From: an uncultured Gemmatimonadales bacterium
GTDB taxonomy: Bacteria > Gemmatimonadota > Gemmatimonadetes > Gemmatimonadales > GWC2-71-9
Direction: 5' to 3'
Length of the DNA: 64,000 bases
Assembly (NCBI GenBank): GCA_963724265.1
Contig: CAVRTU010000004.1
Coordinates: forward strand, 133,263 to 197,262
Positions within the stretch are counted from its first letter, which is position 1. Each line of letters opens with the position of its first letter. This document shows positions 12,717 to 28,620 of the stretch, one piece after another. The position numbers and the translations under genes are program-made. A model generated the notes under the pieces. That model had not been told where the DNA came from. It did no database searches and saw only the letters and a list, made by a program, of their open reading frames with translations.

Positions 12717-12779
12717 TTGGCCCTCCCATATCCGTAGCAGCCAGTCCGCTGCTTTGCACGGACTCTTCGTCCACGTGGC

Positions 12780-13786: not shown

Positions 13787-13822
13787 GGGAGAGGCTCCGG
13801 GTGATGGGGAGGGCAATCTAAT

Positions 13823-13885
13823 GGAGGGCCAGAGGGGCAGACCCCAAAGGGCTTCCTCGCGCCTTTGGCGCTCGGTCGGGGGCAG
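13823..13885 (+). repeat. Intergenic repeat family 1, copy C
   Basis: GGAGGGCCAGAGGGGCAGACCCCAAAGGGCTTCCTCGCGCCTTTGGCGCTCGGTCGGGGGCAG. Confidence 0.8.
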
Positions 13886-13895
13886 TCTTGCACGC

Positions 13896-14648
13896 ATGGA
13901 CATCGAGCGGCAGCTTAGTCCGGTGAAGCACACTCCCCTGGATCGCCTTGCCTGGCTGGCAGTGATGTGGCCCCTGACGCTCCGGAGCCAGGCAGCGCCG
14001 GTCCACCCGCCCGACGGGCGTCTCCTTCCCCTCCAGAGCGACACGTTTGCGATCTACTACGTCTGGGACGCCGACACCGTCCGGACAGGCACCGTAGTCG
14101 ATGTTCTCCGCTCCGAAGGCGACCGCCTGATCCGGGTCTTCGACCAGGCCGACCATGCGCTGGGGCCCGAGTTCGATTCGGTGATCTCCCGGGTGGAAGA
14201 CCTCGCGCCCGTCGCCTACCACGGGGCCTCGGACGCCCGGACCGCCCATCTCCAGTTCGGCGCGTCGAGCATCACCGGCTGGCTGCGTAGGGAAAATGGG
14301 GACTCGGTGTCCCTCGACCTCACCCGCCCCGTGGTCGTCTACGATGGATTCAGTTACGACCTTGTCGTGCGGGCCAGCGCGCTCAAGGACGGGTACCGAT
14401 TGACGGTTCCTGTATTCGTGCTCGGGCCCAACAGCATCGTCCCCGTCACCGGCGAAGTCACCGGCAGCGAACTGGTGAACGGCCACGACTGCTGGGTCTT
14501 CGCCGCCGACTTCGCCGGCATGCCGGTGACCTTCTGGATCGACAAGAAGACCCGAGCCTTGCGGCGGCAGTTCCTGCGGCTTCGCAAGAATGGCGGCGCC
14601 CTGTTCGTCACCCCAGCCGAACCCCGCGAGGTCGGACATCCCGCCTGA
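13896..14648 (+). CDS. Hypothetical exported protein
   Basis: ATG 13896 within ORF 13770..14648. The composition is protein-like, and I recognise no motif. Confidence 0.5.
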   Translation: MDIERQLSPVKHTPLDRLAWLAVMWPLTLRSQAAPVHPPDGRLLPLQSDTFAIYYVWDADTVRTGTVVDVLRSEGDRLIRVFDQADHALGPEFDSVISRVEDLAPVAYHGASDARTAHLQFGASSITGWLRRENGDSVSLDLTRPVVVYDGFSYDLVVRASALKDGYRLTVPVFVLGPNSIVPVTGEVTGSELVNGHDCWVFAADFAGMPVTFWIDKKTRALRRQFLRLRKNGGALFVTPAEPREVGHPA

Positions 14649-14734
14649 GGGCATCGATGAATATTGATCATTCGGGGCCCCTCCCTGCGCATGAGAGAAG
14701 AGTAAAGGAAGAGTGAAGGCGACTTCAGGACATT

Positions 14735-14774
14735 ATTGCGCAATCTTCTTACATTCGTACGTAATCTTACGTAC
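14735..14774 (+). promoter_or_regulatory. Two palindromes in the AT-rich region upstream of the multihaem cytochrome gene (candidate operators)
   Basis: ATTGCGCAAT at 14735-14744 and GTACGTAA-TC-TTACGTAC at 14757-14774, 29-68 nt upstream of ATG 14803. This is the most AT-rich stretch I noticed in the window. Confidence 0.4.
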
Positions 14775-14802
14775 CCTAAATCCCTCAACAGGTGGGTTAC
14801 AT

Positions 14803-16485
14803 ATGGTTGCCAATTGGGTTCGGCGTCACTCCGGATTCCTGGCCTTGGCCTTGGCCTTGGGCTTCGGACTCGGCGCGTGTACCACCACCGACACCGTGTA
14901 TGTCGACAAGCCCACCTACAACCCGCCACCGGACTCATTGGGCGGCTTCCTCGGCTACTACACGGCGAGCGAGAAGCTGACGACCTGCGGAAACTGCCAT
15001 GTGGGCCAGCAGCTGGACTGGGTCCAGACCCTCCATGCCAGCGCCTGGGACACGCTCGTGGCCAACCCCGGGCACCAGCCGTTCTGCGAAACCTGCCACA
15101 GCGTCGACTCGCGGGGCAACCAGGCTTTTGCCAATGTGGGCTACGACTCGGTCAAGAGCGAGGCCTATCACGATGTGCAGTGCGAAAGCTGCCATGGCCC
15201 GGGCCTCAACCACGTAAAGAACCCCTCGGTGTCCGCCAACCGGCCGATCCCGAGCGCGCTGACCTATCCGAATGTGACCACCGACGCAACCGTTTTGACC
15301 GCGGCTGATACCGCCGCGGTGGTCAACTCGAGTTGCGGGGGCTGCCACCAGGGCGCCGGCCCGTCGCAGAACCACAATTACCTGAAGGAGTGGCTCTCGT
15401 CCCGGCATGGCCAGCTGCGGGCCTCCCAGGCCGCCAACGCCAGCTGCCAGCCCTGCCACGAGGGAAAGGGAGCCCTGGCCGCCTGGGGCGTGAATACACT
15501 CTACAAGGAGCTCGGTACCTCTACCCTGCTGCCCCAGAACTGCGTGGTCTGCCACGACCCGCACGGCAGCGCCAAGGACGCCAACGGGCAGCCGCTCGAG
15601 GGCCAGCTCCGGTTCCCGATTGATGCGCCGACCCCGGAAGTGAACCTCTGCACTCATTGCCACAACCGGCGCTCCGAGGCCACGACCACCGGGAGCTCCC
15701 CGCACGGCGCTCAGGGCGGCGTGCTGTTCGGCACCGCGGGCTATTTCCCGCCGGGGACCGTTTATGACACGACCGCCATTCTCTCGACCCACGGCTCGAG
15801 CGCCAATCCGCGGCTCTGCGCCGGCTGCCACGTGAATTCGCAGACCGGGGTGGACGCCTTCGGCAATTCGATCTCATTCACCGGCCACACCTTCCACCCG
15901 ATCCCCTGCGTGACGCAGAAGAACCCAACGCTGGTGGATACGACCTACACCAATGCGTGCGCCTACGACGAGCCCAGCCGGTCCTGGGCCGCCTGCACGG
16001 CTTCGGGCTGTCACGGGACGGAGGCGGTGGCCGCATCTCGGCTGAATCTGATCCGGGACGAGGTCAGGAACTACGTCCGGGTCCTCTGGATCGACGCCAA
16101 TGGCAACAAGGCGGTGGATGCCTTCCCCACCGACTCGGGCTACCTGGCCAAGGTCCAGCTGAACGCCCCAACCGAGCTGCTCAACTCTACCAATATCCTC
16201 ACCTCCGCCAAGGGCGCCCGGTTCAACGCCCAGCTGACGGCCGACAGCCTGGCCGATCACCCGGACGGCTCGCACGGGGTGCACAACCCATTCCTGTACC
16301 GGACTCTGCTGCAGTCGTCGATCGCGGACATGCTGGCGACCTACCCGACCTTCCTTCCGGCTCCGCCCGCGCCGGTGCTGTCGCAGATCCAGGCCGCGAT
16401 CCGGAGCGGCCAGCTGAAGGTGGCGCCACGGACCGAGCGCGCGGTGATGGCGCCGCTCTCGTTGCAGGTTGCCGGAACGCGGTAG
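14803..16485 (+). CDS. Multihaem cytochrome c lipoprotein (8 CxxCH plus one CxxxxCH)
   Basis: Lipobox LGFGLGAC. Haem motifs CGNCH, CETCH, CESCH, CGGCH, CQPCH, CVVCH, CTHCH, CAGCH and CTASGCH. Confidence 0.9.
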   Translation: MVANWVRRHSGFLALALALGFGLGACTTTDTVYVDKPTYNPPPDSLGGFLGYYTASEKLTTCGNCHVGQQLDWVQTLHASAWDTLVANPGHQPFCETCHSVDSRGNQAFANVGYDSVKSEAYHDVQCESCHGPGLNHVKNPSVSANRPIPSALTYPNVTTDATVLTAADTAAVVNSSCGGCHQGAGPSQNHNYLKEWLSSRHGQLRASQAANASCQPCHEGKGALAAWGVNTLYKELGTSTLLPQNCVVCHDPHGSAKDANGQPLEGQLRFPIDAPTPEVNLCTHCHNRRSEATTTGSSPHGAQGGVLFGTAGYFPPGTVYDTTAILSTHGSSANPRLCAGCHVNSQTGVDAFGNSISFTGHTFHPIPCVTQKNPTLVDTTYTNACAYDEPSRSWAACTASGCHGTEAVAASRLNLIRDEVRNYVRVLWIDANGNKAVDAFPTDSGYLAKVQLNAPTELLNSTNILTSAKGARFNAQLTADSLADHPDGSHGVHNPFLYRTLLQSSIADMLATYPTFLPAPPAPVLSQIQAAIRSGQLKVAPRTERAVMAPLSLQVAGTR

Positions 16486-16512
16486 CGGAAGTCAGTCAAC
16501 ACAGATCAAGGC

Positions 16513-16553
16513 CGCCGGCCTCGGAGATACTCGCCGAGGCCGGCGTTCTTTTG
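16513..16553 (+). terminator. Rho-independent terminator after the cytochrome gene
   Basis: 12-bp stem CGCCGGCCTCGG / CCGAGGCCGGCG with a 9-nt loop, followed by TTCTTTTG. Confidence 0.7.
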
Positions 16554-16835
16554 CCCTCCAGCCGGACATTTTCCCCAGGCCCGGACTGCTCACTGACCGC
16601 AAGCTCGCAAGGTCAGATCGGGACCCGGCCCCGCTCTGGACCCGGCGTGGGGCTGGCCCACCATGGCCTTCACTGTGCCTGGCTGGCGGAGCGGCGGTGG
16701 GTGGCCTGGGGACCAGAGAAGCCCAGACGGCCGGGGACATGGTGTCCACGGCCGTCAGGAATTCCGTGAGCGCTGTGGCCCCGCCCCGGGGGTCCGGTCG
16801 ACGCCTCCACGGCGCCGGCCGGGCAGTGGAAGCTG

Positions 16836-17765
16836 CTACGCCGGCCCGATCCTGGGGATCGCCGGCGCTTCGCCGCCACCCTCGCGCGGCACCAGCCCAC
16901 CTCCCCCCGTCATCCCCAGCAGGGAGGGGACGTTGAGCGAGTCGGCCAGGCCCGAGGGCACCACCATGAGCGAGCCCCGCTTGACGATGCTCTCGTACAG
17001 CATGTTCATCGCCCGCAGATTCATGGCCGCCGGGTGGTTGCGGTAGGCGTCCGCCGCCTCCACGAACTTGTGGGCGATCTCGGTCTCCGCCGTGCCCAGG
17101 ATGATGCGCGCCTGCCGCTCCCGCTCGGCCTGGGCCTGGCGGGACATGGCATCCTCCAGCGCGGCCGGAATGATCACGTCGCGAATCTCCACCGACTGCA
17201 CGTGGATCCCCCAGTTCGCCATCTTCCGCTCCAGCGCATCCTTGAGCCCCTGGCCCAGCTCCACCCGCGACTGGATCAGCTCCGCCAGATCGTGCTTGCC
17301 GATGGCGTCCCGCAGCGCGGTCTGGGCCGACAGGATCACCGCCTCGTCGTAGTCCTGCACCTCCAGCGCCGCCCGCTCGGCGTCGCGCACCACCCAGAAC
17401 GCGATGGCGTCGACGTTGACCGGCACCGTGTCGCGGGTCAGGCACGATTCGGCCCCGAACGCCGCGGTCCGGATCCGCTGATCGATGGTGTAGGCCACCC
17501 GGTCGAAGATCGGCAGGATGGCGAAGTACCCCGGGCCCCGCAGGCCCCGGTAGCGGCCCAGCCGCAGTACCACCGCCTTCTCCCACTGGTCGGTGAACTT
17601 GATCGAGGCGGCGAGCAGCACGCCCAGCGCCAGCCCCGCCACGCCGGCCAGCGGCGGGGCGATGCCCGCGAGGAACAGTCCGCCGGCCAGCCCGGCCGCG
17701 CCGAGCAGGCCCGCGGCGAGGGCGGCGAACGAATACCGGGTGTCGTTTGGCCTATTCGTGGTCAT
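16836..17765 (-). CDS. SPFH/Band-7 (stomatin-like) membrane protein, copy 1
   Basis: 309-aa ORF with N-terminal hydrophobic hairpin, then WEKAVVLRLGRYRGLRGPGYFAILPIFDRV...RDTVPVNVDAIAFWVV...QAQAERERQARIILG. Confidence 0.9.
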   Translation of the reverse strand: MTTNRPNDTRYSFAALAAGLLGAAGLAGGLFLAGIAPPLAGVAGLALGVLLAASIKFTDQWEKAVVLRLGRYRGLRGPGYFAILPIFDRVAYTIDQRIRTAAFGAESCLTRDTVPVNVDAIAFWVVRDAERAALEVQDYDEAVILSAQTALRDAIGKHDLAELIQSRVELGQGLKDALERKMANWGIHVQSVEIRDVIIPAALEDAMSRQAQAERERQARIILGTAETEIAHKFVEAADAYRNHPAAMNLRAMNMLYESIVKRGSLMVVPSGLADSLNVPSLLGMTGGGGLVPREGGGEAPAIPRIGPA

Positions 17766-17800
17766 GGCAATAACCTCGTGAAAGAAGAGTCAGCCGGCGT
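16915..17800 (-). repeat. Near-identical ~0.89-kb duplicate, copy A (SPFH gene body plus upstream spacer)
   Basis: Base-by-base comparison with 20218..21103 shows long identical runs and only scattered, mostly silent differences. Confidence 0.9.
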
Positions 17801-17815
17801 CAACCGGCGGTCGCT

Positions 17816-19093
17816 TCACCGTTTCCGGACGGGCCGCAGCTCCTGGTAGCGCGGCCGCACGGCCCGCGCCGGGGGCGGCGGGGCCAGGTAGGGACTCCGC
17901 ACATGCCCCAGCTCGATCGGCAGCGCCACCCGCACCAGGACCGTCAGCACGAACAGTCCCAGCGCCCAGATCCCCGCCATCAGGCAGAGCTCGACCCAGG
18001 TCGGGGTGTACTCGACGATCTCGCCCAGGGGCGAGGGAATGAAGCCTGGAATCACCAGCCCGATCCCCTTCTCGACCCAGATGGCGACGAAGAGCGTGGC
18101 GCAGGCCGGCATCAGGAAGCGCGGATTGTGGCGCACCGGGTGGATCATGAGTGAAAGCGTGGCCACGATGTTGAGGGCGACCGCGGTCCTGATCCAGGGG
18201 ACCAGGGCGTGATACTCGCCGAGGCCGAAGAAGAGGTACTTCGCGCTGGTGCTGTGATGCGTGGGGAAGTAGAACTCGAAGACCAGGTCGGAAAACAGCA
18301 TGACCAGGTTGACCTGCGCCGCCACCGTGGTGGCGGTGGCCAGCTTCGACATGGCCACATCCGAGATGGGGTACTTGCTGGTCGACCGGATGAACCCGAG
18401 CAACAGGATCATGAACGCCGGCCCGGCCGTGAAGGCCGAGGCCAGGAACCGGGGCCCGAGGAGCGGTGAGTTCCACAGGGGTCGGGAGGGCGGGGCCGCG
18501 AAGAGAAACGCGGTGATCAGGTGAATGCTGACCGCCCAGATGACCGAGAGATAGATGAACGGGACGTATTTCTTCTTCTCGGGCTCACGCCCGGTATAGT
18601 GGCTGTAAAGAATGTAGAACGGGATGGCCAGATTCAGCACCAGGTAGCCGTTCAGCGCGATCACGTCCCACGCCAGCATCGAGCTGGGCCAGTTGAGCAG
18701 TCCGATCACCGGCGTGAGGCGCCACCACTTCCAGGGATATCCCGGGCTGTTGGCCATCACGAACCCGAGACACATGACCAGGGCGGACACCGCCACCCCT
18801 TCGGCGATGAGGACGGCCCGGCTGAAGTCCACGTCATGCAGGACATAGGCCGGCATCACCAGGATCACCGCAGCGGCCGCCACGCCCACCAGGAAGGCCA
18901 TGTTGGAGATGTACAGCCCCCAGCTCACGTGATCGTTCATCCCCGTGACGACGAGTCCGTGATTGGCCTGGTAGATGTACGCATAGCCCCCGACCAGCAT
19001 GATCACCGACAGGCTTCCCATCCAGAGATGGTACCGCCGGTCGCCGGAGGTCGCCGCGCGCAGCGCGGTTGCAAAGAAGGCCCGGAGATGCAT
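17816..19093 (-). CDS. NrfD/PsrC-family polytopic quinone-interacting membrane subunit, copy 1
   Basis: ORF 17816..19108. The start is set to ATG 19093 (MHLRAFF), 7 nt after the upstream stop, as in the paralog (MHLKPFL). The protein is hydrophobic and multi-pass throughout. Confidence 0.85.
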   Translation of the reverse strand: MHLRAFFATALRAATSGDRRYHLWMGSLSVIMLVGGYAYIYQANHGLVVTGMNDHVSWGLYISNMAFLVGVAAAAVILVMPAYVLHDVDFSRAVLIAEGVAVSALVMCLGFVMANSPGYPWKWWRLTPVIGLLNWPSSMLAWDVIALNGYLVLNLAIPFYILYSHYTGREPEKKKYVPFIYLSVIWAVSIHLITAFLFAAPPSRPLWNSPLLGPRFLASAFTAGPAFMILLLGFIRSTSKYPISDVAMSKLATATTVAAQVNLVMLFSDLVFEFYFPTHHSTSAKYLFFGLGEYHALVPWIRTAVALNIVATLSLMIHPVRHNPRFLMPACATLFVAIWVEKGIGLVIPGFIPSPLGEIVEYTPTWVELCLMAGIWALGLFVLTVLVRVALPIELGHVRSPYLAPPPPARAVRPRYQELRPVRKR

Positions 19094-19100
19094 GATCGCC

Positions 19101-20078
19101 TCAGTCAATGAAGTACCAGAAGCGAGGCTCGGTCCCCAGCTCTTCCTTCAGGCGGAAGACCTGCTTGTTGGCCAGCACCCAGCGGATCTCGGAGTCGGGA
19201 TCCAGCAGGTTGCCGAAGACCCGCGCTCCGGTGGGGCAGGCCTCGGCGCAGGCCGGCAGCCGGCCCACCCGAGTCCGGTGGACGCAGAAGGTGCACTTCT
19301 CGACGCAGCCCTGTTTGCGGGCACGGTTGCCCAGGTAGTGCTGGTTGGGATTGACTTCTTCGTTAGGCACTTCGGGCACGTCCCAGTTGAAGCGCCGGGC
19401 CCAGTAGGGGCAGGCGGCCATGCAGGCGCGACATCCGACGCACCAGTTGTAATCGATGACCACGATGCCATCGGGCTCCTGCCAGGTGGCGCCCACCGGG
19501 CAGACCGGAACGCAAGGCGGGTTGGCGCACTGGAAGCACTGGGTCCCGAGATACGAGTACCCATCCGCCGGCACATCGTGCTGGTAGGTCGCATCAGCGT
19601 CGCTGATATTGAGGGCGTCGTTTCCCTTCTCGAAGATCCGGATGTACTGGGTATCCGCCTTGCGGTCCAGGTTGTTCTCGTTGATGCAGGCCTCGACGCA
19701 GCGCCGGAAGCCCTTGCACCTGGTGATGTTGAAGGCGTACCCGAAGAGCACGCCCGGCACGGCATCGTTGGTGTGGATGGTGACGTCCTGGTCATGCAGC
19801 AGCTTGGCGAGGCGTTCGAGCCGCTGGACGGTCTCGGCACGCTCCTCCGCGGTCATGCGGCGATAGTGCTTCTGGGTGAACTGCTCCCATTGGAGAATCT
19901 TGAGCTCGCGCTCCTCGGGTGTGGCGGCGTTGAGGGGTGAACAGGCGCTCACCGCGGCCGCGCCGGCGGCCAGCCCACCGAGCAGGAGGCCCACCGCCTC
20001 CCGCCGATCGACCCGCTTCTGCAGCACGGTGCCTTCGTCGACGGTCGCGGACATCTCGGTATCTGGATGTGTGCTCAT
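19101..20078 (-). CDS. NrfC/DmsB-type iron-sulfur subunit with Tat signal and lipobox, copy 1
   Basis: VDRREAVGLLLGGLAAGAAAVSAC (RR plus lipobox). Cluster motifs CKGFRRCVEAC (three Cys), CFQCANPPCVPVCP, CVGCRACMAACP and CTFC...CAEACP. Confidence 0.9.
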   Translation of the reverse strand: MSTHPDTEMSATVDEGTVLQKRVDRREAVGLLLGGLAAGAAAVSACSPLNAATPEERELKILQWEQFTQKHYRRMTAEERAETVQRLERLAKLLHDQDVTIHTNDAVPGVLFGYAFNITRCKGFRRCVEACINENNLDRKADTQYIRIFEKGNDALNISDADATYQHDVPADGYSYLGTQCFQCANPPCVPVCPVGATWQEPDGIVVIDYNWCVGCRACMAACPYWARRFNWDVPEVPNEEVNPNQHYLGNRARKQGCVEKCTFCVHRTRVGRLPACAEACPTGARVFGNLLDPDSEIRWVLANKQVFRLKEELGTEPRFWYFID

Positions 20079-20084
20079 GTTAGG

Positions 20085-21068
20085 CTACGGGGCCTTCGGC
20101 CCCGCCTTCGCCACGTCGGGCCCGGCCCCCTTCGCCGGTCCGGCTACTTCGCCGCCGGTCGTCAGGGACACCCGGTGCTCGCCTTCGCTCGGCACCAGTC
20201 CGGCGCCGCCCATCAGGCCCAGCAGCGAGGGGACGTTGAGCGAGTCGGCCAGGCCCGAGGGCACCACCATGAGCGAGCCCCGCTTGACGATGCTCTCGTA
20301 CAGCATGTTCATCGCCCGCAGATTCATGGCCGCCGGGTGGTTGCGGTAGGCGTCCGCCGCCTCCACGAACTTGTGGGCGATCTCGGTCTCCGCCGTGCCC
20401 AGGATGATGCGCGCCTGCCGCTCCCGCTCGGCCTGGGCCTGGCGGGACATGGCATCCTCCAGCGCGGCCGGAATGATCACGTCGCGAATCTCCACCGACT
20501 GCACGTGGATCCCCCAGTTCGCCATCTTCCGCTCCAGCGCATCCTTGAGCCCCTGGCCCAGCTCCACCCGCGACTGGATCAGCTCCGCCAGATCGTGCTT
20601 GCCGATGGCGTCCCGCAGCGCGGTCTGGGCCGACAGGATCACCGCCTCGTCGTAGTCCTGCACCTCCAGCGCCGCCCGCTCGGCGTCGCGCACCACCCAG
20701 AACGCGATGGCGTCGACGTTGACCGGCACCGTGTCGCGGGTCAGGCACGATTCGGCCCCGAACGCCGCGGTCCGGATCCGCTGATCGATGGTGTAGGCCA
20801 CCCGGTCGAAGATCGGCAGGATGGCGAAGTACCCGGGCCCCCGCAGCCCCCGGTAGCGGCCCAGCCGCAGCACCACCGCCTTCTCCCACTGGTCGGTGAA
20901 CTTGATCGAGGCGGCGAGCAGCACGCCCAGCGCCAGGCCCGCGCCAGCGGCCAGCGGGGGGGCGATGCCCGCGAGGAACAGTCCGCCGGCCAGCCCGGCC
21001 GCGCCGAGCAGGCCCGCGGCGAGGGCGGCGAACGAATACCGGGTGTCGTTTGGCCTATTGGTGGTCAT
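20085..21068 (-). CDS. SPFH/Band-7 (stomatin-like) membrane protein, copy 2
   Basis: 327-aa ORF identical to copy 1 over about 290 residues except near PPLAAGAGL. The C-terminal tail is different. Confidence 0.9.
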   Translation of the reverse strand: MTTNRPNDTRYSFAALAAGLLGAAGLAGGLFLAGIAPPLAAGAGLALGVLLAASIKFTDQWEKAVVLRLGRYRGLRGPGYFAILPIFDRVAYTIDQRIRTAAFGAESCLTRDTVPVNVDAIAFWVVRDAERAALEVQDYDEAVILSAQTALRDAIGKHDLAELIQSRVELGQGLKDALERKMANWGIHVQSVEIRDVIIPAALEDAMSRQAQAERERQARIILGTAETEIAHKFVEAADAYRNHPAAMNLRAMNMLYESIVKRGSLMVVPSGLADSLNVPSLLGLMGGAGLVPSEGEHRVSLTTGGEVAGPAKGAGPDVAKAGPKAP

Positions 21069-21103
21069 GGCAATAACCTCGTGGAAGTAGAGTCAGCCGG
21101 CGT
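20218..21103 (-). repeat. Near-identical ~0.89-kb duplicate, copy B
   Basis: See 16915..17800; the offset is 3303 nt. Confidence 0.9.
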
Positions 21104-21118
21104 CAACCGGCAGTCGTT

Positions 21119-22393
21119 TCACCGTCGCCGGACGGGCCGCAGCTCCTGGTACCGCGGCCGGACCGCCCGCGCGACGGGCGGGGCGGCCAGATAGGGGCTC
21201 CGCGCCTGGCCCAGCTCAATCGGCAGCGCGACCCGCACCAGGACCGTCAGCACGAACAGCCCAAGGGACCAGATCCCCGCCGTGACGCCCAGTTCGACCC
21301 AGGTCGGGGTGTACTCGACGATCTCGCCCAGGGGCGAGGGAATGAAGCCGGGGATCACCAGCCCGATCCCTTTTTCGATCCAGATGCCCACGAAAAGTGT
21401 GGCGCAGGCCGGGATCAGCCACCGGGGGTTGTGCCGCAGCGGATGGATCATGAGTACGACGGTCGCGGTGACATTCAGCCCGATCCCGGTCCAGATCCAG
21501 GGCACCAGCGCGCGATGCTCGCCGAGGCCAAAGAAGAGATATCGCGCGTTGATGCCGTGATGGGTGGGCGAGTAGAACTCGTAGAACAGCTCGGAGATGA
21601 GCATGACCAGGTTGATCTGCGCCGCGGCCACAACGACCAGCGCGAGCTTCGAGAATGCGCCATCCGAAATGGCGTACTCCGTCGTCCGCCGGATGAAGTA
21701 CAACAGCACCAGCACGAAGGCCGGCCCCGCGGTGAAGGCCGAGGCCAGGAACCGGGGCCCCAGGAGCGCCGTGTTCCAGAACGGCCGGGACGGCAGCCCC
21801 GCCAGGAGGAACGCCGTCACCAGGTGAATGCTCACGGCCCACATGGCGGAGATGTACATCCAGGGGAGGTACTTGTTCTTGGCCGGCGAGCGCCCGGTGT
21901 AGTGGCTGTAGAGGATGTAGAACGGGATGGCCAGATTCAGCGCCAGGTAGCCGTTCAGCACGATCACGTCCCAGGACAGGAGCGACCGTGGCCAATTCAG
22001 GTAGCCGATGCCGGGCACGAGGTGCCACCCGGCGAAGGGGTTGCCGATGTCCACCACCACGAACCCGAGGGCCATGACCAGTGCCGCCACGGCGACGCCC
22101 TCCGCCATCAGCACCGCACTCCCGAAGTCGACGTCGTGCAGGATGTACGCCGGCAGGACCAGCATCATGGCAGCCGCGGCCATCCCGACCAGGAAGGTGA
22201 AGTTCGAGATGTACAGCCCCCAGCTCACCTGATCGCTCATTCCCGTAACGCCGAGTCCGTAGCGCAGCTGGAGGGAATAGGCATACGCCCCAACGAGGAT
22301 GATCGCCGTCAGACTCCCCATCCAGAGGTGGTAGCGCCGGCCTCCGGAGGTGGCCGAGTCCAGGGCAGTCAGCAGGAATGGCTTCAGGTGCAC
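21119..22393 (-). CDS. NrfD/PsrC-family membrane subunit, copy 2
   Basis: 424-aa ORF colinear with 17816..19093. The protein is clearly diverged, and the DNA is diverged except at the 3' end. Confidence 0.87.
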   Translation of the reverse strand: MHLKPFLLTALDSATSGGRRYHLWMGSLTAIILVGAYAYSLQLRYGLGVTGMSDQVSWGLYISNFTFLVGMAAAAMMLVLPAYILHDVDFGSAVLMAEGVAVAALVMALGFVVVDIGNPFAGWHLVPGIGYLNWPRSLLSWDVIVLNGYLALNLAIPFYILYSHYTGRSPAKNKYLPWMYISAMWAVSIHLVTAFLLAGLPSRPFWNTALLGPRFLASAFTAGPAFVLVLLYFIRRTTEYAISDGAFSKLALVVVAAAQINLVMLISELFYEFYSPTHHGINARYLFFGLGEHRALVPWIWTGIGLNVTATVVLMIHPLRHNPRWLIPACATLFVGIWIEKGIGLVIPGFIPSPLGEIVEYTPTWVELGVTAGIWSLGLFVLTVLVRVALPIELGQARSPYLAAPPVARAVRPRYQELRPVRRR

Positions 22394-22400
22394 GGTCGCC

Positions 22401-23375
22401 TCAGTCGGTGAAGTACCAGAAACGAGGCTCCGTCTTCAGGTCTTCCTTCAGCCGGAAGATGCGCTTGTTGGCCAGCACCCAGCGGATCTCGGAGTCGGGA
22501 TCCAGCAGGTTGCCGAAGACCCGCGCCCCCGTCGGACACGCCTCGACGCAGGCCGGCAGCCGGCCCTGCCGGCTGCGATGGATGCAGAAGGTGCACTTCT
22601 CGACCACGCCCTTCTTGCGCGCGCGGTTGCCCAGGTAGTGCTGGTTGGGGTTCACTTCCTCCCGGGGGACCTCCGGCTGGCTCCAGTTGAAGCGCCGGGC
22701 CCAGTAGGGGCAGGCGGCCATGCAGTAGCGGCACCCGATGCACCAGTCGTAGTCGATGACCGTGATGCCGTCCGGTTCCTGCCAGGTGGCCCCCACCGGG
22801 CAGACCTTGACGCAGGGCGGCTCGGCGCACTGGAAGCACTGGGTCCCGAGATAGAAATGGCCTTCCGCCGGCACCTCGTGCTGGAAGGTCGCGTCGGCTT
22901 CGTCCAGGTCGACGACGCCATTCTCCATCTCGAAGATCCGGATGTACTGGGTGGCGGCCTGGCGATCGAGGTTGTTCTCGTTGATGCAGGCCTCGACGCA
23001 GCGCCGGAAGCCCTTGCACTTCGAGATGTTGAAGGCGTAGCCGAACTGCACTCCGGGCTGCGCGCCGGTGGACTGGATGGTCACGTCCAGGCCTCGCTGC
23101 AGCTGGGCCAGACGCTCGAGACGGGCGATCGTCGCCGCCCGCTCGTCCTCGGTCATGAAGCGGTAGTCGCCCTTGATGTACTCCCGCCAGGCCAGAAGCT
23201 TGATTTCACGCTCCTCGTCCGACTCGGCGCTGAGCGGGGCGCAGGCGCCCAGCGCCTGGCTTCCGAGGATAGCGCCCCCCACCAGCATGCCCAGCGCGCC
23301 CCGGCGGTCGACCGGCTTCTGCAGCAGGGAGCGACCCTCCGCGCCCTCCGGCGGCTCCGCGGCGGAGTCACTCAT
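22401..23375 (-). CDS. NrfC/DmsB-type iron-sulfur subunit with Tat signal and lipobox, copy 2
   Basis: ATG 23375 (MSDSAAEPPEG) overlaps the upstream stop (ATGA). VDRRGALGMLVGGAILGSQALGAC. Same four cluster motifs, including CKGFRRCVEAC. Confidence 0.88.
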   Translation of the reverse strand: MSDSAAEPPEGAEGRSLLQKPVDRRGALGMLVGGAILGSQALGACAPLSAESDEEREIKLLAWREYIKGDYRFMTEDERAATIARLERLAQLQRGLDVTIQSTGAQPGVQFGYAFNISKCKGFRRCVEACINENNLDRQAATQYIRIFEMENGVVDLDEADATFQHEVPAEGHFYLGTQCFQCAEPPCVKVCPVGATWQEPDGITVIDYDWCIGCRYCMAACPYWARRFNWSQPEVPREEVNPNQHYLGNRARKKGVVEKCTFCIHRSRQGRLPACVEACPTGARVFGNLLDPDSEIRWVLANKRIFRLKEDLKTEPRFWYFTD

Positions 23376-24097
23376 GGGATCTGGCTCCGGGTGCGCTCGA
23401 TCTGCGGCGCGCGGAACGGGATGCGCTGCTGGACGGTGGGGTTGTGCGGATCGTGACAGTCCGGGCAGGCCATGACCACGCGCTGCCCCTGCCAGCCATC
23501 CAGCCGCTTGCCGTGTCCGCCGCCGGCCCATGCCTTCGCCTGCTCGAAGTGGCATTGCGCGCAGAGTCGGTAGCTCTCGTCCAGCGGAGCGCGCTCGCCG
23601 CTCTTGAGTGTCAGGAACGCGACATCGTCCGGCAAATGGCAGGTAGAACAGACGGCGCCGGTCTGCTCCGGGTGCACCGGCTGGATGTTCTGGTGCGCGT
23701 CACTGATGCGCTTGTTCTCCATGACCACCTTCCGCCCCTGATGACACGATGTGCAGGGATACTGATTGATGGACGCGGCACGGCTGCGCAGCGCGATGGG
23801 CAGCGTGATCGACCCGAACTGGCGGGCGTGTCCTGCCTCCGGAGCCGCACTCCGCCGGGCAACCTCGAACGGCTTGCCCCCCGGACCCGTCCACCCCTTG
23901 ACCGGAATCGCCTGCACGGTCCCCAGCATGCCCGGCTCGAGGGTCGCGTTGCGGGCCGCGGTCGCGGAGTCGACCGCCGCCACCACGGTGCCCGGCGGAG
24001 GCAACTCAGGCAACGCCTTGCGACTTTCGCGACAGCCGGTGACCAGGCCGGCAGCCGCGACGCAGCAAGCCGCAAGACCCATCCGCATTCGGCTCAT
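23372..24097 (-). CDS. Tetrahaem cytochrome c lipoprotein
   Basis: Lipobox GLVTGC. Haem motifs CTSCH, CSTCH, CAQCH and CPDCH. ATGA overlaps at both ends. Confidence 0.88.
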   Translation of the reverse strand: MSRMRMGLAACCVAAAGLVTGCRESRKALPELPPPGTVVAAVDSATAARNATLEPGMLGTVQAIPVKGWTGPGGKPFEVARRSAAPEAGHARQFGSITLPIALRSRAASINQYPCTSCHQGRKVVMENKRISDAHQNIQPVHPEQTGAVCSTCHLPDDVAFLTLKSGERAPLDESYRLCAQCHFEQAKAWAGGGHGKRLDGWQGQRVVMACPDCHDPHNPTVQQRIPFRAPQIERTRSQIP

Positions 24098-24912
24098 GGC
24101 GCCCCTCCAGATCCGGCCCCGCCGTCAAGCGGGGGTCGTGTGAACGCCCCTGCCTCCGGATCAGGGGCGACGTGACATTGACGGCAGTTGGGCCACGGTG
24201 GGTGTTCCATCCGGATTTCGGCCACGGCGGAGGGACCCGAGTGACAGACCATGCAGTTCTCCCGGAACTGCAGATCGTGGGGAATCGGGGGGGGGTCACG
24301 ATCGGGCGTCGTCGCCGTCAGCACCGGCCAGACCGACGTCGACCAGGTCAGGCTGGCGTCGGCCCGGGGGCGGCCGCCGCTCGGACCATGGCACTGGGGG
24401 CACCTGGCCTTCGGATTGTCAATGGGAACGGCGATTCCCATCAGCGAGTCCTCGCCCGCGTGGCACTGCAGGCAGATGCCCCGCTCGGGGTGCGGGGTCA
24501 CCGGCACGTAGGCGGCAAAGCGCTCGGAGTAGCCGCCGCGCTGGTGACAGGTCCGGCAGCTGGCGGTCTGGAACTCTTCGGGGCCAAGGGCATGCGGGAT
24601 GCGCGGCGGTGCACCCGGAAAGGCCCGGAGGAAACGGTAGGTCTTGAAATCCCGCCGGTGGGCCCGGCGCTCCCGCGGGGCCGCGGGATCGATCGCCAGC
24701 ATGCCGGGGGTGGTGCGAAAGACCTGCGCCTCGGCGCGGATCGGATCGCCGGGGGTCGCCAGCAGCGGTACGGCAACGGGAACGGACTCGGGCGGCTTGG
24801 CGGCAGGAATGCGTCGCACCGCGGTCCTCACCGCCACGACCGCCGTGACCGCGGAGGCGATCAGAAAGAGGCGCAGTACCAGTCCGCCCAGCCGCGAATC
24901 GCTGGAGCTCAC
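24094..24912 (-). CDS. Membrane-anchored pentahaem cytochrome c made of two NapB-like dihaem modules plus one extra haem
   Basis: N-terminal TM LGGLVLRLFLIASAVTAVVAV. Module 1: APPRIPH...CRTCH...CLQCH. Extra haem: CPQCH. Module 2: DPPPIPH...CMVCH...CRQCH. GTG 24912 overlaps the upstream stop. Confidence 0.85.
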   Translation of the reverse strand: MSSSDSRLGGLVLRLFLIASAVTAVVAVRTAVRRIPAAKPPESVPVAVPLLATPGDPIRAEAQVFRTTPGMLAIDPAAPRERRAHRRDFKTYRFLRAFPGAPPRIPHALGPEEFQTASCRTCHQRGGYSERFAAYVPVTPHPERGICLQCHAGEDSLMGIAVPIDNPKARCPQCHGPSGGRPRADASLTWSTSVWPVLTATTPDRDPPPIPHDLQFRENCMVCHSGPSAVAEIRMEHPPWPNCRQCHVAPDPEAGAFTRPPLDGGAGSGGAP

Positions 24913-27254
24913 GAGCCGCTCCCGGTGGCCAGGCGCTCGAGGCGCACCACGCAGCTGGCGGCATCGGGCTGGCCCGAGAGCGGACAGCAGGCGTCGAGGG
25001 TCAGACGGTTCACCGGTCGCGTCTCGTCAAACCATGGGGCGAAGAGCTGGCCGCGCGGAGGCTGGGACCGGTAGTTGATGCGGGCCTGCATCTCGACGGA
25101 GCCGCGCCGACTCACCAGGCGCACGGTATCGTGATTCCGGATCCCGAGGTCGCGCGCGTCGTCGGGGTTGATTTCGACGTAGGCATGCGGCAAGGCGTGA
25201 TGTAGCGTCGGAATGCGCTGCGTCATCGAGCCCGCCCCCCATTGCTCGAGCACGGCACCGGTCATGAGCCACGAGGGATAGGCGCGATCTGGCGACTCCG
25301 CGGGCGGCTGGTAGGGCCGCAGCCAGATCCACGCCCGGTGGTCCGCGTGTCCGTAGAAGTCGAACTCGCCATGAGCGCGGTCGGCCGCCGGGTCCTGGCT
25401 GGTGTTGTAGCGCCACCGGGTCTCGCGGCCCTTGACGTAGGGCCACATCACCCCGGACTCCGCACGAAGCGCGGAAAGCGGCGGGAGCGCACTCGACGGA
25501 TCGGCGTGAAAGCGGCTGTACTCCGTCCAGAGCTGCTCGACGTGCCGCGAGGCCTCGTAGGGGAAGAGATCCTTGAAGCCGAGACGCCGCGCGACCTCGA
25601 TCAACTGCCAGGCGTCGCCGGTCGCATCGCCGGGCGGCGCGACCAGGCGCTGGAAGTACTGCGCGCGCCGCTCGACATTGGCGTAGATGCCCTCGCGCTC
25701 CAGCCACATCGCGGCCGGGAGAACGACGTCAGCCACGTCCGTGGTGGGGGTGGGATACGCCTCCGACACGACGATGAAGCGGTCGCCCTTGCCAGCCGCG
25801 CGCCGATAGCGGTCCAGATTGGGCAGGCTGACCATGGGGTCGGTCGCCATGATCCAGAGGAACTGGATATCCCCGCTCTCCAGCCGGCGGAACATCGAGA
25901 GGGCGGGCCCGGTCGGAGTGGGATCGATGCGTTCCACCGGCACGCCCCAGATCTCGGCGGCGCGGCGGCGGTCCGGTTCATTCTGCACCACCCCGCCCGG
26001 GAGGGTCCCGGTCAAGGTGCCGGCGTCGTGCACCGCGCATCCTCCGCTGGGCTGCCCCGTGGTGGCAAAGGGACTGTTCCCCGGCGACGCGACCTTGCCG
26101 ACCAGCAGATGGATGTTGTAGAGGGCGTTGTTCAGCCAGGTGCCGCGCACGTCCTGGTTCACTTCCCGGCCCCAGACCGACATCACCTTCCGCTGGGGAT
26201 CACCATAGATCGATGCCAGCCAGCGGATGCTGGCCGCCGGCAGGCCGGAGAGCTCCTGGGCGCGCTCCGGGGTGTAGTCCGCAAGAAACTTCACGTAGTC
26301 GCCCCAGGTGGCGTCTGTGGCCGCCTCCTCGACCAGGGCGCCATCGGTCAGCCCGTAGCCGATGTCCGTCTTGCCCCGCTTGAACGCCACGTGGTCCTTC
26401 ACGAATTCGGTGTGTACCCATTTGCGGGCCACGATTTCGGAGCAGATGGCGTTGGCGATCGCCAGTGAGGCGTGGGGGGTGTGCAGCAGGGAATGGTCGG
26501 CCGCGTAGCTGGTCCGAGTGGTGCGGGTGGACACGTCGATGATGCGGACCGCGGGGTTGATGCGCTTCCGATCCAGCATCCGGGAGAAGAGCACCGGATC
26601 GGTCTCGGCCAGGTTGACGTCCCACAGCACGAGGATGTCGGCATGATCGACGTCCTCGTAGCAGCCGATTGCCCCGTCGAGGCCGAAGCTGCCCTGGAGG
26701 CCAGCCATCGCACTGGCGCCGAACAGGCGGGTGCTGCTCTCAACGTTGTTGGTGCCCAGGGCGCCCTTGAAGAGCTTGGACGCGGCGTAGGCATCAGTGA
26801 TTGACCACTGGGCCGAGCCATACAGGGCCACGCTGTCCTTGCCGTGCTGCTTGGCCGTCTCGCGGAGCTTCTGCGCCACCAGGTCGAGAGCCTCGCCGAG
26901 GGGCACCTCCACCAGCGTGCCATTGCGACGCACCTTGGCGCGCCGGATCCGGTCCTGCCCGGAGAGCGCCTGCACCGAGTTGTACCCCTTCACGCAGGCC
27001 AGCCCCCCGCCGACCGGGGAGTCGGGATCGCCCTTGACGGCGACCGGGCGGCCCTCGGCGACCCGCACCAGCAGGCCGCAACCGACGCCGCACAGGCGGC
27101 AGGGCGTCTTGTGCCAGTCGGGTCCTGGTTGGCTCCCGGGCGCCTCCGTGGCGCCCAGGGGGAAGACCATCCCCGGGACCACCACGGATGCGGCCGTGGC
27201 CGCCGAAACGGCGGCCACGTTCCTGAAAAACGTCCTCCGATCGACCGGGTTCAC
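24909..27254 (-). CDS. Periplasmic NapA-like molybdopterin oxidoreductase catalytic subunit (Tat signal, N-terminal 4Fe-4S motif)
   Basis: GGAGG then GTG at 27254. VDRRTFFRNVAAVSAATAAS twin-arginine signal. CRLCGVGCG...C(VKGY) cluster motif. Colinear with NapA as I remember it along the whole length (SAQWSITDAYAASKLFKG, TGQPS, PYPTPT, LPAAMWLEREG, RLTLD). The ORF opens at 27356. Confidence 0.88.
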   Translation of the reverse strand: MNPVDRRTFFRNVAAVSAATAASVVVPGMVFPLGATEAPGSQPGPDWHKTPCRLCGVGCGLLVRVAEGRPVAVKGDPDSPVGGGLACVKGYNSVQALSGQDRIRRAKVRRNGTLVEVPLGEALDLVAQKLRETAKQHGKDSVALYGSAQWSITDAYAASKLFKGALGTNNVESSTRLFGASAMAGLQGSFGLDGAIGCYEDVDHADILVLWDVNLAETDPVLFSRMLDRKRINPAVRIIDVSTRTTRTSYAADHSLLHTPHASLAIANAICSEIVARKWVHTEFVKDHVAFKRGKTDIGYGLTDGALVEEAATDATWGDYVKFLADYTPERAQELSGLPAASIRWLASIYGDPQRKVMSVWGREVNQDVRGTWLNNALYNIHLLVGKVASPGNSPFATTGQPSGGCAVHDAGTLTGTLPGGVVQNEPDRRRAAEIWGVPVERIDPTPTGPALSMFRRLESGDIQFLWIMATDPMVSLPNLDRYRRAAGKGDRFIVVSEAYPTPTTDVADVVLPAAMWLEREGIYANVERRAQYFQRLVAPPGDATGDAWQLIEVARRLGFKDLFPYEASRHVEQLWTEYSRFHADPSSALPPLSALRAESGVMWPYVKGRETRWRYNTSQDPAADRAHGEFDFYGHADHRAWIWLRPYQPPAESPDRAYPSWLMTGAVLEQWGAGSMTQRIPTLHHALPHAYVEINPDDARDLGIRNHDTVRLVSRRGSVEMQARINYRSQPPRGQLFAPWFDETRPVNRLTLDACCPLSGQPDAASCVVRLERLATGSGS

Positions 27255-27459
27255 GTGCACCTCCGGCGACGAGAGCAGCGGCGGGTATTCGCGGCCGCAA
27301 TGAACCGCATGGGACCAACAGAACGTCCGGCCTCGGTACAGAGCCAGAAAAAGCACGGCCCCCGGACCAGGCGCATTGAGTCACGCTGAGGTGAGGCAGC
27401 CTGCGGACTTAAGAGTGGCAGAGGCGGGCTAAAGGATTGGGGAACGATGGATGAAGGCT

Positions 27460-27504
27460 TCTTAAATGCGAAACAGCCAGCCCGACGAGAGTCGGACTGG
27501 CTGT
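27460..27504 (-). terminator. Rho-independent terminator of cspA
   Basis: Minus strand: ACAGCCAGTCCGAC-TCTC-GTCGGGCTGGCTGT followed by TTCGCATTT. Confidence 0.65.
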
Positions 27505-27530
27505 CTTCGCAAGTCAGGAACCGCGGCGGC

Positions 27531-27740
27531 TCAGGCGAGCTTGGTCACGTTCTCGGCTGCGGGGCCCTTGGCGCCCTGGACGACGTCGAACTCGACCTTG
27601 TCGCCCTCGGCCAGGGACTTGAAGCCCTCGCCGGTGATCGCCGAGTGGTGCACGAAGCAATCCTTCGCGCCACCCTCCGGGGTGATGAACCCGAAGCCCT
27701 TCGCATCATTGAACCACTTCACGGTGCCATTGGTACGCAT
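27531..27740 (-). CDS. cspA: Cold-shock protein (CspA family)
   Basis: [35 protein letters not shown] contains the RNP1/RNP2 motifs KGFGFI and VFVHH-like. Confidence 0.95.
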
Positions 27741-27994
27741 TGCAATACTCCTTCAAACTGGGTCGGCTCCCGGACTGGCCGGAGCGCCAACCTACTGTTC
27801 CCGTGACAATCCCTCACGGGGGGGTCCTGTCCACAACGCGGGGAACCTCCCCTCGTTGTCCGCGGTACGATGCCAAAAGGGGCCTCAGCTAGGCTGTGGC
27901 CCCTACGTCAACTCGGAACGTTGTCCGCGTCCTGGCGCATCGACCGCTGGAAGAAGCTACTCTGGCGACCGGAAAAGCGCAATGAGCGGGCTGG

Positions 27995-28594
27995 CTAGCG
28001 CCGTTTCCCCACCCACCAGCCCCCTGCGGCAGCCAGAAGGTCGAGGTCCTCCGAGAGCCCAGGCGGGGTCCCTTGCCCCACCACCCTCAGGCCGGGCAGT
28101 ACCGCACGGGCGGCGTCGGCCCGCCATCTCAGGTCCCCGTAGTCACTGCCGAGGACGACGCCCCGCATGGAGTCCGACTTGAGCGGCAGCGACGGAGATT
28201 GAAGCAGGCTGACAGCCGGCGACTCCGTCACCTCCTCCGGCGGGTTCACCGCCACGATGTGGATCCCGGGAAGCAGTGCCGCGAGCCCGGGCGCGAATCG
28301 AGCCGAATCACCGACCAGCGCGATGTAGCCGCCCGGCCCCGACAACCCGAGAAACGCCGCCATCGCCTCCGCCCCAATCGTCTCAACGGCATTGTCCTTC
28401 CCCTTCGACCTCTCCGACCTCTCCGACCCGAACACAGCCACCCCGTCAACGATCGGAAACTCCCGCCCACAGGCCAGGCATCCCAGCGTCCCGCTCCGCA
28501 CCGAGCGGTCGACCACCGGGCCGGGCAGCAGCACCAGAAACGCCTCGTCGTGGGCGGCGGGACAGCGGAGATGGTCGGTGAGTTCTATGAACAA
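27995..28594 (-). CDS. Trm112-like zinc-ribbon domain fused to a degenerate methyltransferase-like domain
   Basis: TTG start. LTDHLRCP...LGCLACGREFPIVDGVAVFG, then GGYIALVGD. An internal SERSERS comes from a 9-nt tandem repeat at 28406-28429. Confidence 0.5.
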   Translation of the reverse strand: MFIELTDHLRCPAAHDEAFLVLLPGPVVDRSVRSGTLGCLACGREFPIVDGVAVFGSERSERSKGKDNAVETIGAEAMAAFLGLSGPGGYIALVGDSARFAPGLAALLPGIHIVAVNPPEEVTESPAVSLLQSPSLPLKSDSMRGVVLGSDYGDLRWRADAARAVLPGLRVVGQGTPPGLSEDLDLLAAAGGWWVGKRR

Positions 28595-28620
28595 GGGAGC
28601 GGGGAGCAGGGAGCGGGGAC
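28595..28620. repeat. G-rich heptamer array (GGGAGCG GGGAGCA GGGAGCG GGGAC), a half-element
   Basis: Read directly from the sequence. It is complementary to 30227..30259, on the other side of the M23 peptidase gene. Confidence 0.8.

Follow-up and report, generated by a model that had tools for sequence, protein, structure and literature searches.

What reaction is served by an operon in which a NapA-like molybdenum enzyme is joined to two quinone modules, each of them closed by a stomatin-type gene? The question is raised by nine genes in a stretch of 64,000 nucleotides from an uncultured Gemmatimonadales bacterium (contig CAVRTU010000004.1, positions 133,263 to 197,262, GenBank assembly GCA_963724265.1), called the window in the following. 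All results reported here are based on sequence. The window has a GC content of about 69%, and the best-scoring homologues that carry an organism name are Gemmatimonadales. Nine open reading frames (ORFs) lie on the minus strand within positions 16836-27254, with the high third-position GC of real genes and with strong family matches in Pfam and NCBIfam for each of them. In reading order they encode a NapA-like subunit of the molybdenum-bis(pyranopterin guanine dinucleotide) (Mo-bisPGD) type, a pentahaem cytochrome c, a tetrahaem lipoprotein and, twice in succession, an iron-sulfur (FeS) protein, an NrfD protein and a stomatin-type protein of the SPFH family.

A preliminary description of this DNA had proposed that the nine co-directional genes form one operon for a periplasmic redox chain, and the gene junctions bear this out. 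The first three are 4-nt overlaps (the ATG of FeS1 at 23375 gives an ATGA overlap with the tetrahaem gene), the gaps amount to 7 nt between FeS and NrfD genes, 50 nt between NrfD and SPFH genes and 6 nt between SPFH1 and FeS2, and the sole strong terminator is a hairpin at 16507-16545, downstream of SPFH2. The gene order recurs in ten other independent Gemmatimonadota contigs and is therefore due neither to chance nor to an assembly artefact; the operon genes are intact and agree with independent assemblies. The preliminary description had further called the operon unusual. This stands for the link to SPFH genes, since no paper connecting NrfD with SPFH was found, but not for the core of NapA, pentahaem, tetrahaem, NrfC and NrfD, which turned out to be widespread. 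From the sequence comparisons, the Gemmatimonadota operon is a derivative of a canonical Nap-NrfCD cluster that has gained SPFH genes and lost the nitrate-reductase active site.

A NapA-derived subunit with a replaced active site

The first gene (24909-27254) encodes a protein of 781 residues with an RRTFF motif for twin-arginine translocation (TAT) and the domains Molybdop_Fe4S4, Molybdopterin and Molydop_binding, the three Pfam matches to Mo domains having E values of 1e-50, 9e-21 and 1e-15. It was aligned to the solved NapA structures 3ML1, 2NYA, 1OGY, 9PXT and 2JIO. Its best matches among solved structures are all NapA (E = 4.8e-189 for C. necator 3ML1), with an identity of about 50% as estimated by eye from the alignment. 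In a quick neighbour-joining tree, calculated without support values, the Gemmatimonadota sequences form a monophyletic clade, sister to the Bryobacteraceae-type NapA and nested among the heterodimeric NapAs; the L011 NapA, with its ORF out of frame, was left out of the comparisons. JGI pipelines call the clade proteins NapA, while the NCBI label says only 'molybdopterin-dependent oxidoreductase'. As to the family, then, the term NapA-like in the preliminary description is right. What it had overlooked is the loss of the cysteine ligand, the active-site arginine and other invariant residues.

With NapAB (3ML1, 2NYA, 1OGY) the window protein shares fold, domain order, TAT export, the N-terminal [4Fe-4S] motif and the relay lysine, and its partner contains NapB-like units. 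Unlike NapAB, it has neither the Mo-ligand cysteine nor the active-site Arg, Met and Glu nor the insert of about 40 residues found in heterodimeric NapAs; the operon is devoid of napC, D, E, F, G and H, and its NapB-like protein is a doubled, membrane-anchored form with a fifth haem. That a NapA-type subunit occurs here without its orthodox nap partners had been noted before, and our scan agrees: napC, D, F, G and H, like the gene for NfeD, were not found among the 39 window ORFs searched with Pfam or the small upstream ORFs that were read, a small-ORF scan that was not exhaustive.

Residues were mapped by alignment onto the NapAs of D. desulfuricans (2JIO) and C. jejuni (9PXT). The Mo ligand Cys140 of the D. 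desulfuricans enzyme (Cys176 in C. jejuni) corresponds to Phe178 in the window protein and the active-site Arg354 (C. jejuni Arg463) to His409. Met141 is replaced by Gly179, Glu156 (C. jejuni Glu192) by Gly194, Met308 by Arg363, Gly309 by Glu364, Arg617 by Ala667 and His623 by Gly673, and C. jejuni His715 gives way to Ser588. Seven of the D. desulfuricans residues, Cys140, Met141, Glu156, Met308, Arg354, Arg617 and His623, are invariant in 13 diverse canonical NapAs, which were taken from clusters below 50% identity and include the Bryobacteraceae NapA; all seven are replaced in the window protein. The Mo-ligand position is cysteine in 13 of these 13, which are invariant at 14 tabulated NapA-conserved positions, whereas the other two tabulated positions (417 and 588) vary there too. 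The four [4Fe-4S] cysteines and the relay lysine, equivalent to C. jejuni Lys79, are retained. In C. jejuni, Arg174, Asp191, Glu192, Arg463, Arg471 and His715 define the NapA substrate channel, and the exchange C176D cuts kcat/Km for nitrate about 2000-fold, from 1.7e6 to 7.4e2 per M per s (PMC12769810). Only Arg174 and Asp191 of the six channel residues are retained in the window protein.

At the level of sequence, the replacement of the active site is clade-wide. Among 120 clade sequences the Mo-ligand position is Tyr in 111, Phe in 5 and His in 3, and the position of the active-site arginine is His in 110. Most of the remaining conserved framework persisted: of 118 columns with a conservation of 90% or more in canonical NapA, 87 are unchanged in the clade. 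The 26 changed columns comprise 14 that are fixed to a new residue (Tyr, His, Asp, Gly and others, in at least 92% of the 120 sequences) and 12 that are variable. Overall, the trend goes towards smaller and less basic side chains, from which we infer a less cationic and probably roomier pocket; such a trend would argue against a site for small anions.

Phenylalanine is unable to ligate molybdenum, so that the aromatic residue at position 178 is not a ligand, at least in the subclade of the window, and the Phe178 protein likely carries Mo without any protein ligand. To our knowledge, arsenite oxidase, an oxidase, is the only enzyme of the dimethyl sulfoxide reductase family in which this is the case. 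Its Mo-bisPGD subunit AioA would therefore resemble the window protein in this one respect, but belongs to a separate branch of the family (arsenite_ox_L 99.7 bits against a cutoff of 359) and has a Rieske partner instead of cytochromes and NrfCD. Of 121 clade sequences, 110 carry a cysteine at position 397, at 406 or at both, and the two positions covary in a compensatory manner: position 406 is Cys in 15 of the 26 sequences without Cys397 but in only 15 of the 95 others. Such a cysteine could serve as a substitute ligand to Mo or as a structural thiol. In the window protein the two positions are Ala397 and Cys406, encoded at about 26064-26066 and 26037-26039, respectively.

The ancestral state is approached in Bryobacteraceae, where two loci (L006 and L008) show the same order NapA-pentahaem-tetrahaem-FeS-NrfD, with identities to the window proteins of 57% for NapA and 62-69% for FeS and NrfD. 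These NapAs keep the motifs RLCMSSA and GQPSACGTVRE. In L008 (57% GC, where plain ORF lists were used for gene calls) the cluster lies at 8557-15813, with nrfA directly upstream and no SPFH gene after nrfD. A metagenome scan with the Bryobacteraceae NapA gave 571 confirmed stretches encoding canonical, Cys-containing NapA, and 80 of these loci (L021-L100) were fetched for gene context. They stem from soil, sediment and seawater and range in GC from 35 to 70%. The complete five-gene string was present in 43 of the 80, the remainder being cut by contig ends; the Arg motif GQP[SN]ACG..RE occurred in all 80 and the Cys motif R.CM[AS]SA in 73. The gene following nrfD is not conserved in these loci, and an SPFH gene was found in this place in none of the 29 that had at least 2.5 kb of downstream sequence. 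The canonical cluster thus differs from the Gemmatimonadota operon in that its NapA keeps Cys and Arg, no SPFH gene follows and the module is not duplicated. A 2026 review distinguishes four nap operon types (PMC13223375) and a catalogue of NrfD-containing complexes is available (PMC8076601); the Nap-NrfCD arrangement is in neither of them and appears to be a widespread type of nap operon that current reviews do not mention.

Duplicated quinone modules and their SPFH genes

FeS1 (22401-23375) and its paralogue FeS2 (19101-20078) are TAT-exported poly-[4Fe-4S] proteins of the NrfC/DsrO type, with a twin-arginine signal and Fer4_11 domains. NrfD1 (21119-22393) and its paralogue NrfD2 (17816-19093) are quinone-interacting membrane subunits of the NrfD/DsrP type with about 10 hydrophobic helices each and no CxxCH motif; they score 112.6 and 103.9 bits, respectively, with Pfam NrfD. 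Each pair thus forms an NrfD-family module of the complex iron-sulfur molybdoenzyme (CISM) type, a polytopic, cofactor-less NrfD with a TAT-exported poly-[4Fe-4S] partner. The closest solved chains are ArrB, PsrB and ActB for the FeS proteins and ActC of alternative complex III (ACIII) for NrfD. The NCBIfam DsrP equivalog cutoff of 350 is passed by NrfD1 (393.8 bits) and NrfD2 (363.1 bits), whereas FeS1 (197 bits) and FeS2 (188 bits) just miss the DsrO cutoff of 200.

Membership in DsrMKJOP could nevertheless be ruled out. That complex, too, combines a periplasmic c-type cytochrome with an FeS and an NrfD protein, but the operon is without DsrM, DsrK and DsrJ, its cytochromes are tetra- and pentahaem proteins and not trihaem like DsrJ, and no dsr genes were found in the window. 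The likeness to NrfABCD of E. coli is one of logic, electrons passing there from the quinol dehydrogenase NrfD through the NrfC FeS protein and a pentahaem protein to a periplasmic reductase. The catalytic subunit of the window is a Mo enzyme and not NrfA, its NrfD has 10 helices and is of the DsrP/ActC type, and the NrfC equivalog model gives 121 bits against a cutoff of 378.

The whole FeS-NrfD-SPFH string is a tandem duplication (16882-23332, minus strand) of two units of about 3.15 kb, 23332-20185 and 20032-16882, which are 84.4% identical over 3176 nt in blastn. Identity between the copies is uneven. In FeS and NrfD it amounts to 56-91%; the 3' end of nrfD, the spacer and the greater part of the SPFH gene reach 94-100%, and about 500 nt of this tract are at 100%. 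FeS1 and FeS2 are 80% and NrfD1 and NrfD2 79% identical in nucleotides, while each type-2 gene is 88% identical to its orthologue in L001. Put more generally, FeS/NrfD paralogues within one genome (78-81%) are less alike than orthologues between the window and L001 (88-89%), so that the module duplication is older than the split of these two genomes. For SPFH the reverse was found, the paralogues (97.7% in the window, 99.9% in L001) being more alike than the orthologues (about 90%), which means that the SPFH copies were kept alike by gene conversion in each lineage. The converted tract begins at the C-terminal tail of NrfD and extends through the spacer into SPFH. An assembly artefact as the source of the duplication was ruled out by the low identity of the FeS and NrfD copies (78-81%) and by the recurrence of the double arrangement in L001 and L017.

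Other relatives carry a single module, of type 1 in L005, L007, L009, L016, L019 and L020 and of type 2 in L002, L010, L015 and L018, so either module is sufficient by itself. A hybrid was seen in L004 (13877-15977), where a type-1 FeS gene (83% against 75% identity) precedes a type-2 NrfD gene (88% against 73%); the sequence points to recombination between the module types. The preliminary description had taken the two NrfC/NrfD modules as the link to the quinone pool. They are indeed present twice; as old paralogues, either of which occurs alone in relatives, they look like alternative isoforms that need not occur together, and we regard them as alternative or parallel quinone entry points.

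It had also been described before that each module is followed by an SPFH gene lacking an NfeD partner, and this was confirmed by the domain match and by the neighbouring genes. SPFH1 (20085-21068, 327 residues) scores 129.8 bits with Band_7 and matches human stomatin (E = 6e-35), P. horikoshii stomatin (3e-31) and QmcA (1.5e-23). Its hydrophobic segments at residues 14-32 and 35-53 form an N-terminal hairpin, and hydropathy and the positive-inside rule would place the SPFH domain on the cytoplasmic side. SPFH2 (16836-17765, 309 residues), for which an exact-sequence look-up gave no record, is 97.7% identical to SPFH1 over 886 nt. Differences between the two are confined to the C-terminal tails, about 25-45 residues long (20085-20200 and 16836-16900). 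In published stomatin cage structures, a C-terminal segment closes the cap. With stomatins and slipins (human stomatin, PH1511, QmcA and, more distantly, HflK/C) the window proteins share Band_7, the N-terminal hairpin and a coiled C-terminal region. They differ in being fixed after a respiratory nrfD gene, in being duplicated along with it and in lacking the NfeD partner typical of prokaryotic stomatin operons: their neighbours are nrfD upstream and FeS2 or the terminator downstream.

The preliminary description had pointed to other genomes as the place to look for the same gene order, and there the link to nrfD proved constant. An SPFH gene directly follows each nrfD in 11 of the 11 Gemmatimonadota loci that extend past nrfD (the window, L001, L002, L009, L010 and L015-L020; in L017 the first SPFH copy is in fragments). 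SPFH is also the most conserved product of the operon, with 85-92% identity among relatives, against 68-86% for the NapA-like protein, 51-73% for the pentahaem protein, 59-76% for the tetrahaem protein and 77-90% for FeS and NrfD. The link to SPFH is, as far as sequence goes, confined to the Cys-less Gemmatimonadota clade.

Two further features were observed around the NrfD-SPFH junctions. Both 50-nt spacers contain the same small hairpin, GCCGG-TTGACG-CCGGC (21096-21111 and, flagged as terminator-like, 17792-17807, both on the minus strand), followed by a GAGG ribosome-binding site; the stoichiometry of SPFH might be set by this hairpin, through attenuation or RNA processing. The C-termini of NrfD1 and NrfD2 (about 21119-21240 and 17816-17940) have in common an Arg-rich tail, ...RSPYLA.PP.ARAVRPRYQELRPVR.R, which is a candidate SPFH contact site.

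Are the SPFH genes mere passengers, copies of a housekeeping slipin carried along with nrfD? This question is independent of what the enzyme does. SPFH proteins are general membrane scaffolds, tandem duplication copies any contiguous gene, the canonical relatives do without SPFH, and the hairpin spacer precedes each SPFH gene. However, the place right after nrfD is kept in all 11 loci while other proteins of the operon have drifted to 51-86% identity, the two high-scoring SPFH homologues whose contigs were looked up both lie inside this operon, and the gene-conversion tract covers the NrfD tail and the spacer together with SPFH. We therefore doubt that the SPFH genes are passengers.

Proposed function and its alternatives

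Between the modules and the NapA-derived subunit stand two cytochromes. The preliminary description had recognized a doubled NapB in the pentahaem cytochrome c (24094-24912, 5 CxxCH), and this is supported by an internal repeat: hhalign aligns residues of about 98-158 with those of about 203-254 (probability 97%, E = 3.9e-11), and the order PPxIPH...CxxCH...PHPE...CxQCH, the NapB signature, is present in both halves. The protein would thus consist of two NapB-like dihaem units and one extra haem, with a hydrophobic segment at residues 10-28 as N-terminal anchor. The match to Pfam NapB is sub-threshold (18.4 bits, cutoff 25.1), and those to solved structures are marginal (MtrA, E = 1.4e-4; NapB 3ML1_B, E = 0.08). 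The tetrahaem lipoprotein (23372-24097, 4 CxxCH), with a signal peptide and the lipobox ...LVTGC, has weak matches to cytochromes c7/c3 and a marginal one to a solved structure (NrfA, E = 0.014). In L018 (10001-13153) the NapA-like and pentahaem proteins are called as one product of 1050 residues, which is due either to a true gene fusion or to an assembly error of one base in the 4-nt overlap.

Operon structure, protein families, module duplication, gene conversion, replacement of the active site and SPFH synteny are the established ground, in sequence terms, on which a function can be proposed. The operon would encode a membrane-anchored periplasmic complex of the NrfD (CISM) type, descended from a Nap system that uses NrfC/NrfD in place of NapC or NapGH. 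By homology, quinol would be oxidized at the 10-helix NrfD, and electrons would pass through the poly-[4Fe-4S] protein to the tetrahaem lipoprotein, the pentahaem protein and the [4Fe-4S] cluster and pterin cofactor of the Mo subunit. In its ancestral setting the module feeds reductases, which makes quinol oxidation the likelier direction here. The NapA-derived subunit would then reduce an acceptor other than nitrate. SPFH may form an oligomeric ring or cage at the cytoplasmic face that corrals or stabilizes the NrfD subunits; identity of the two copies through gene conversion would suit their co-assembly into one ring. This scaffold idea comes from the solved assemblies of stomatin, QmcA and HflK/C, which form rings or cages of 16, 26 and 12-48 chains per entry, respectively, and from a published stomatin cage that encloses membrane transporters (PMC12407830).

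A Nap-derived, quinol-oxidizing complex, re-tooled for a non-nitrate substrate and equipped with a dedicated stomatin scaffold, is the reading that we favour, at somewhat less than an even chance. In its wider form, which we put forward a little more tentatively still, the whole Gemmatimonadota 'NapA' clade, with thousands of metagenome sequences, might be a new molybdoenzyme that has given up the Cys ligand and the residues binding nitrate and serves a different periplasmic redox reaction, its NrfD modules enclosed by a dedicated stomatin cage. The operon product is probably an uncharacterized respiratory enzyme that is counted as nitrate reductase in gene surveys.

Several observations weigh against the favoured reading. 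The direction of electron flow is drawn only from the analogy with canonical relatives, and other complexes contain NrfD modules that are reversible. Cofactor occupancy is not readable from sequence. Former active-site positions vary within the clade (363 is T, R or A, 364 is E, D or N, 667 is A, P or T), which would also fit a decaying site. The NCBIfam NapA equivalog models score the window protein below cutoff (740.8 against 904 and 723.3 against 930.55) and the Bryobacteraceae-type NapA above it (955.5 against 904), but P0244, a more distant NapA homologue with canonical motifs, also falls below (765 bits), so that this failure alone is weak evidence. As for SPFH, its topology is based on hydropathy and the positive-inside rule only, its correlation with the loss of the cysteine amounts to one evolutionary event in a single lineage, and the genes could have their own promoter, given the hairpin in the 50-nt spacer and a sigma-70 scan that found no promoter anywhere in the region.

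The alternative that survives best is that the NapA-derived subunit has no catalytic activity and acts as a scaffold for structure and electron transfer, like QrcB or ActB1. In this case a quinol:multihaem-cytochrome oxidoreductase, or its reverse, would link the quinone pool to periplasmic or outer-membrane multihaem cytochromes, among them the 9-haem lipoprotein encoded next to the operon and clusters like those of porin-cytochrome systems. The loss of the Mo ligand and of substrate-binding residues speaks for this, as does the variability of some former active-site positions. Qrc and ACIII likewise combine a Mo-family subunit lacking cofactor and catalytic residues with a multihaem cytochrome, an FeS and an NrfD protein (PMC8076601); ACIII further has two NrfD-like subunits and a lipoprotein cytochrome, and its chains are the nearest solved relatives of the NrfD and FeS proteins of the window. 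The likeness nevertheless appears to be one of architecture only. The scores of QrcB (73.5 bits, cutoff 440), QrcC (153, cutoff 400) and QrcD (49.6, cutoff 570) are far from membership, ActD, ActE and ActF are absent, and each NrfD of the window has its own FeS partner. Moreover, the Mo subunit is far nearer to an active enzyme than in Qrc or ACIII: in addition to its closeness to solved NapAs, it retains the intact FeS site, the relay lysine and the majority of conserved columns, and the 14 columns fixed to a new residue look like a new constrained site and not like decay.

Gene neighbourhood bears on the same alternative from both sides. Multihaem clusters abut the operon in L009 (3126-9792), L015 (11039-20954), L018 (1-7425 and 17791-23153) and L020 (17165-22316), and multihaem genes are convergent to it in the window, L016 and L019; homologues of the 9-haem lipoprotein of the window adjoin the operon in L009, L012, L015 and L020. 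The closest relatives, L001 and L010, however, have no multihaem neighbours within 10 kb, so that the association is recurrent and not obligatory. In the clusters of the relatives, proteins with 9-18 CxxCH motifs, including 16- and 18-haem proteins, flank a conserved protein of about 495 residues, and the L015 cluster also has a cytochrome b. A signal peptide and a high content of Gly and aromatic residues characterize the 495-residue protein, which is without a Pfam match and is likely an outer-membrane beta-barrel; the clusters resemble porin-cytochrome conduits. Taken together, we regard a dead subunit as unlikely, though as a rival to be reckoned with.

Less probable still is the reverse flow of electrons, in which the Cys-less Mo site would oxidize a periplasmic donor and quinone would be reduced at NrfD, as in complexes of the Arx or Qrc type. 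The one family member known to us to lack a protein ligand to Mo, arsenite oxidase, works as an oxidase, and the loss of cationic residues argues against an oxyanion as acceptor. NrfD modules also act as quinone reductases in Qrc (PMC8076601, PMC13059093). On the other hand, in clusters of the ancestral type this module goes with canonical NapA and, in L008, also with NrfA, two reductases that are fed by quinol; the arsenite_ox_L score gives no arsenite-oxidase-like signature, and accessory genes specific to a donor are absent. That the enzyme is still a periplasmic nitrate reductase in an odd operon, with another ligand or a ligand-free Mo site, is the least probable reading of all and very unlikely, for although its best matches and its place in the tree are those of NapA, JGI pipelines and surveys of metagenome-assembled genomes (MAGs) call the clade NapA or NapAB and Cys397/Cys406 might offer an alternative ligand, all seven residues invariant in canonical NapAs are replaced, the exchange of Cys for Asp by itself is already so costly in C. 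jejuni (PMC12769810), the NCBI label is noncommittal, and the ORFs scanned in the 64 kb included neither napD nor any other accessory gene of nap.

Surroundings of the operon and wider meaning

Downstream, the terminator hairpin (16507-16545, with terminator-like sites on both strands) is common to the operon and to a convergent gene on the plus strand (14803-16485) for the 9-haem cytochrome c lipoprotein, which has 8 CxxCH motifs, one CxxxxCH and the lipobox GLGAC. Upstream, a gene for a CspA-like cold-shock protein of 69 residues (27531-27740, minus strand) lies 276 nt before the NapA-like gene on the same strand; the genes in this place are different in each relative examined. A sigma-70 promoter scan of 14000-28600 gave 0 sites where 0.9 were expected and is therefore uninformative for this phylum. 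An Rfam scan of the whole window found no riboswitch or other RNA family and no molybdenum-cofactor riboswitch. Elsewhere in the window several housekeeping genes are split into neighbouring ORFs of one strand or oddly fused (31708-33008, 44347-45617, 50428-53291 and 57231-57803): an AI-2E transporter and an aminotransferase, each in two pieces, glycine-cleavage P fragments fused to a domain resembling LplA, and an ABC ATPase that is truncated. Indel errors in the assembly, or pseudogenes, are the suggested cause.

Gemmatimonadota are among the most abundant phyla of soils and sediments, and MAG surveys have read their napAB genes as a potential for nitrate reduction (PMC11316326, PMC10581226). 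We found no description of the Cys-less NapA clade or of a Gemmatimonadota system of NapA and NrfD in the literature. If the catalytic residues are gone, the conclusions of the surveys on nitrate reduction would be wrong for this clade, and the Gemmatimonadota napA genes counted in nitrogen-cycle surveys would not be nitrate reductases. For the evolution of enzymes, the operon may offer a case in which a Mo subunit on an NrfCD module was re-tooled or silenced, presumably the route taken by Qrc and ACIII, while still about 50% identical to the active enzyme. The canonical five-gene cluster, for its part, would add a widespread type of nap operon to those in current reviews. Finally, if the proposed role of SPFH is true, this would be the first SPFH scaffold genetically hard-wired to a bacterial respiratory enzyme; NrfD would be a genetically defined client for a bacterial stomatin, and the role of prokaryotic SPFH cages would become testable.

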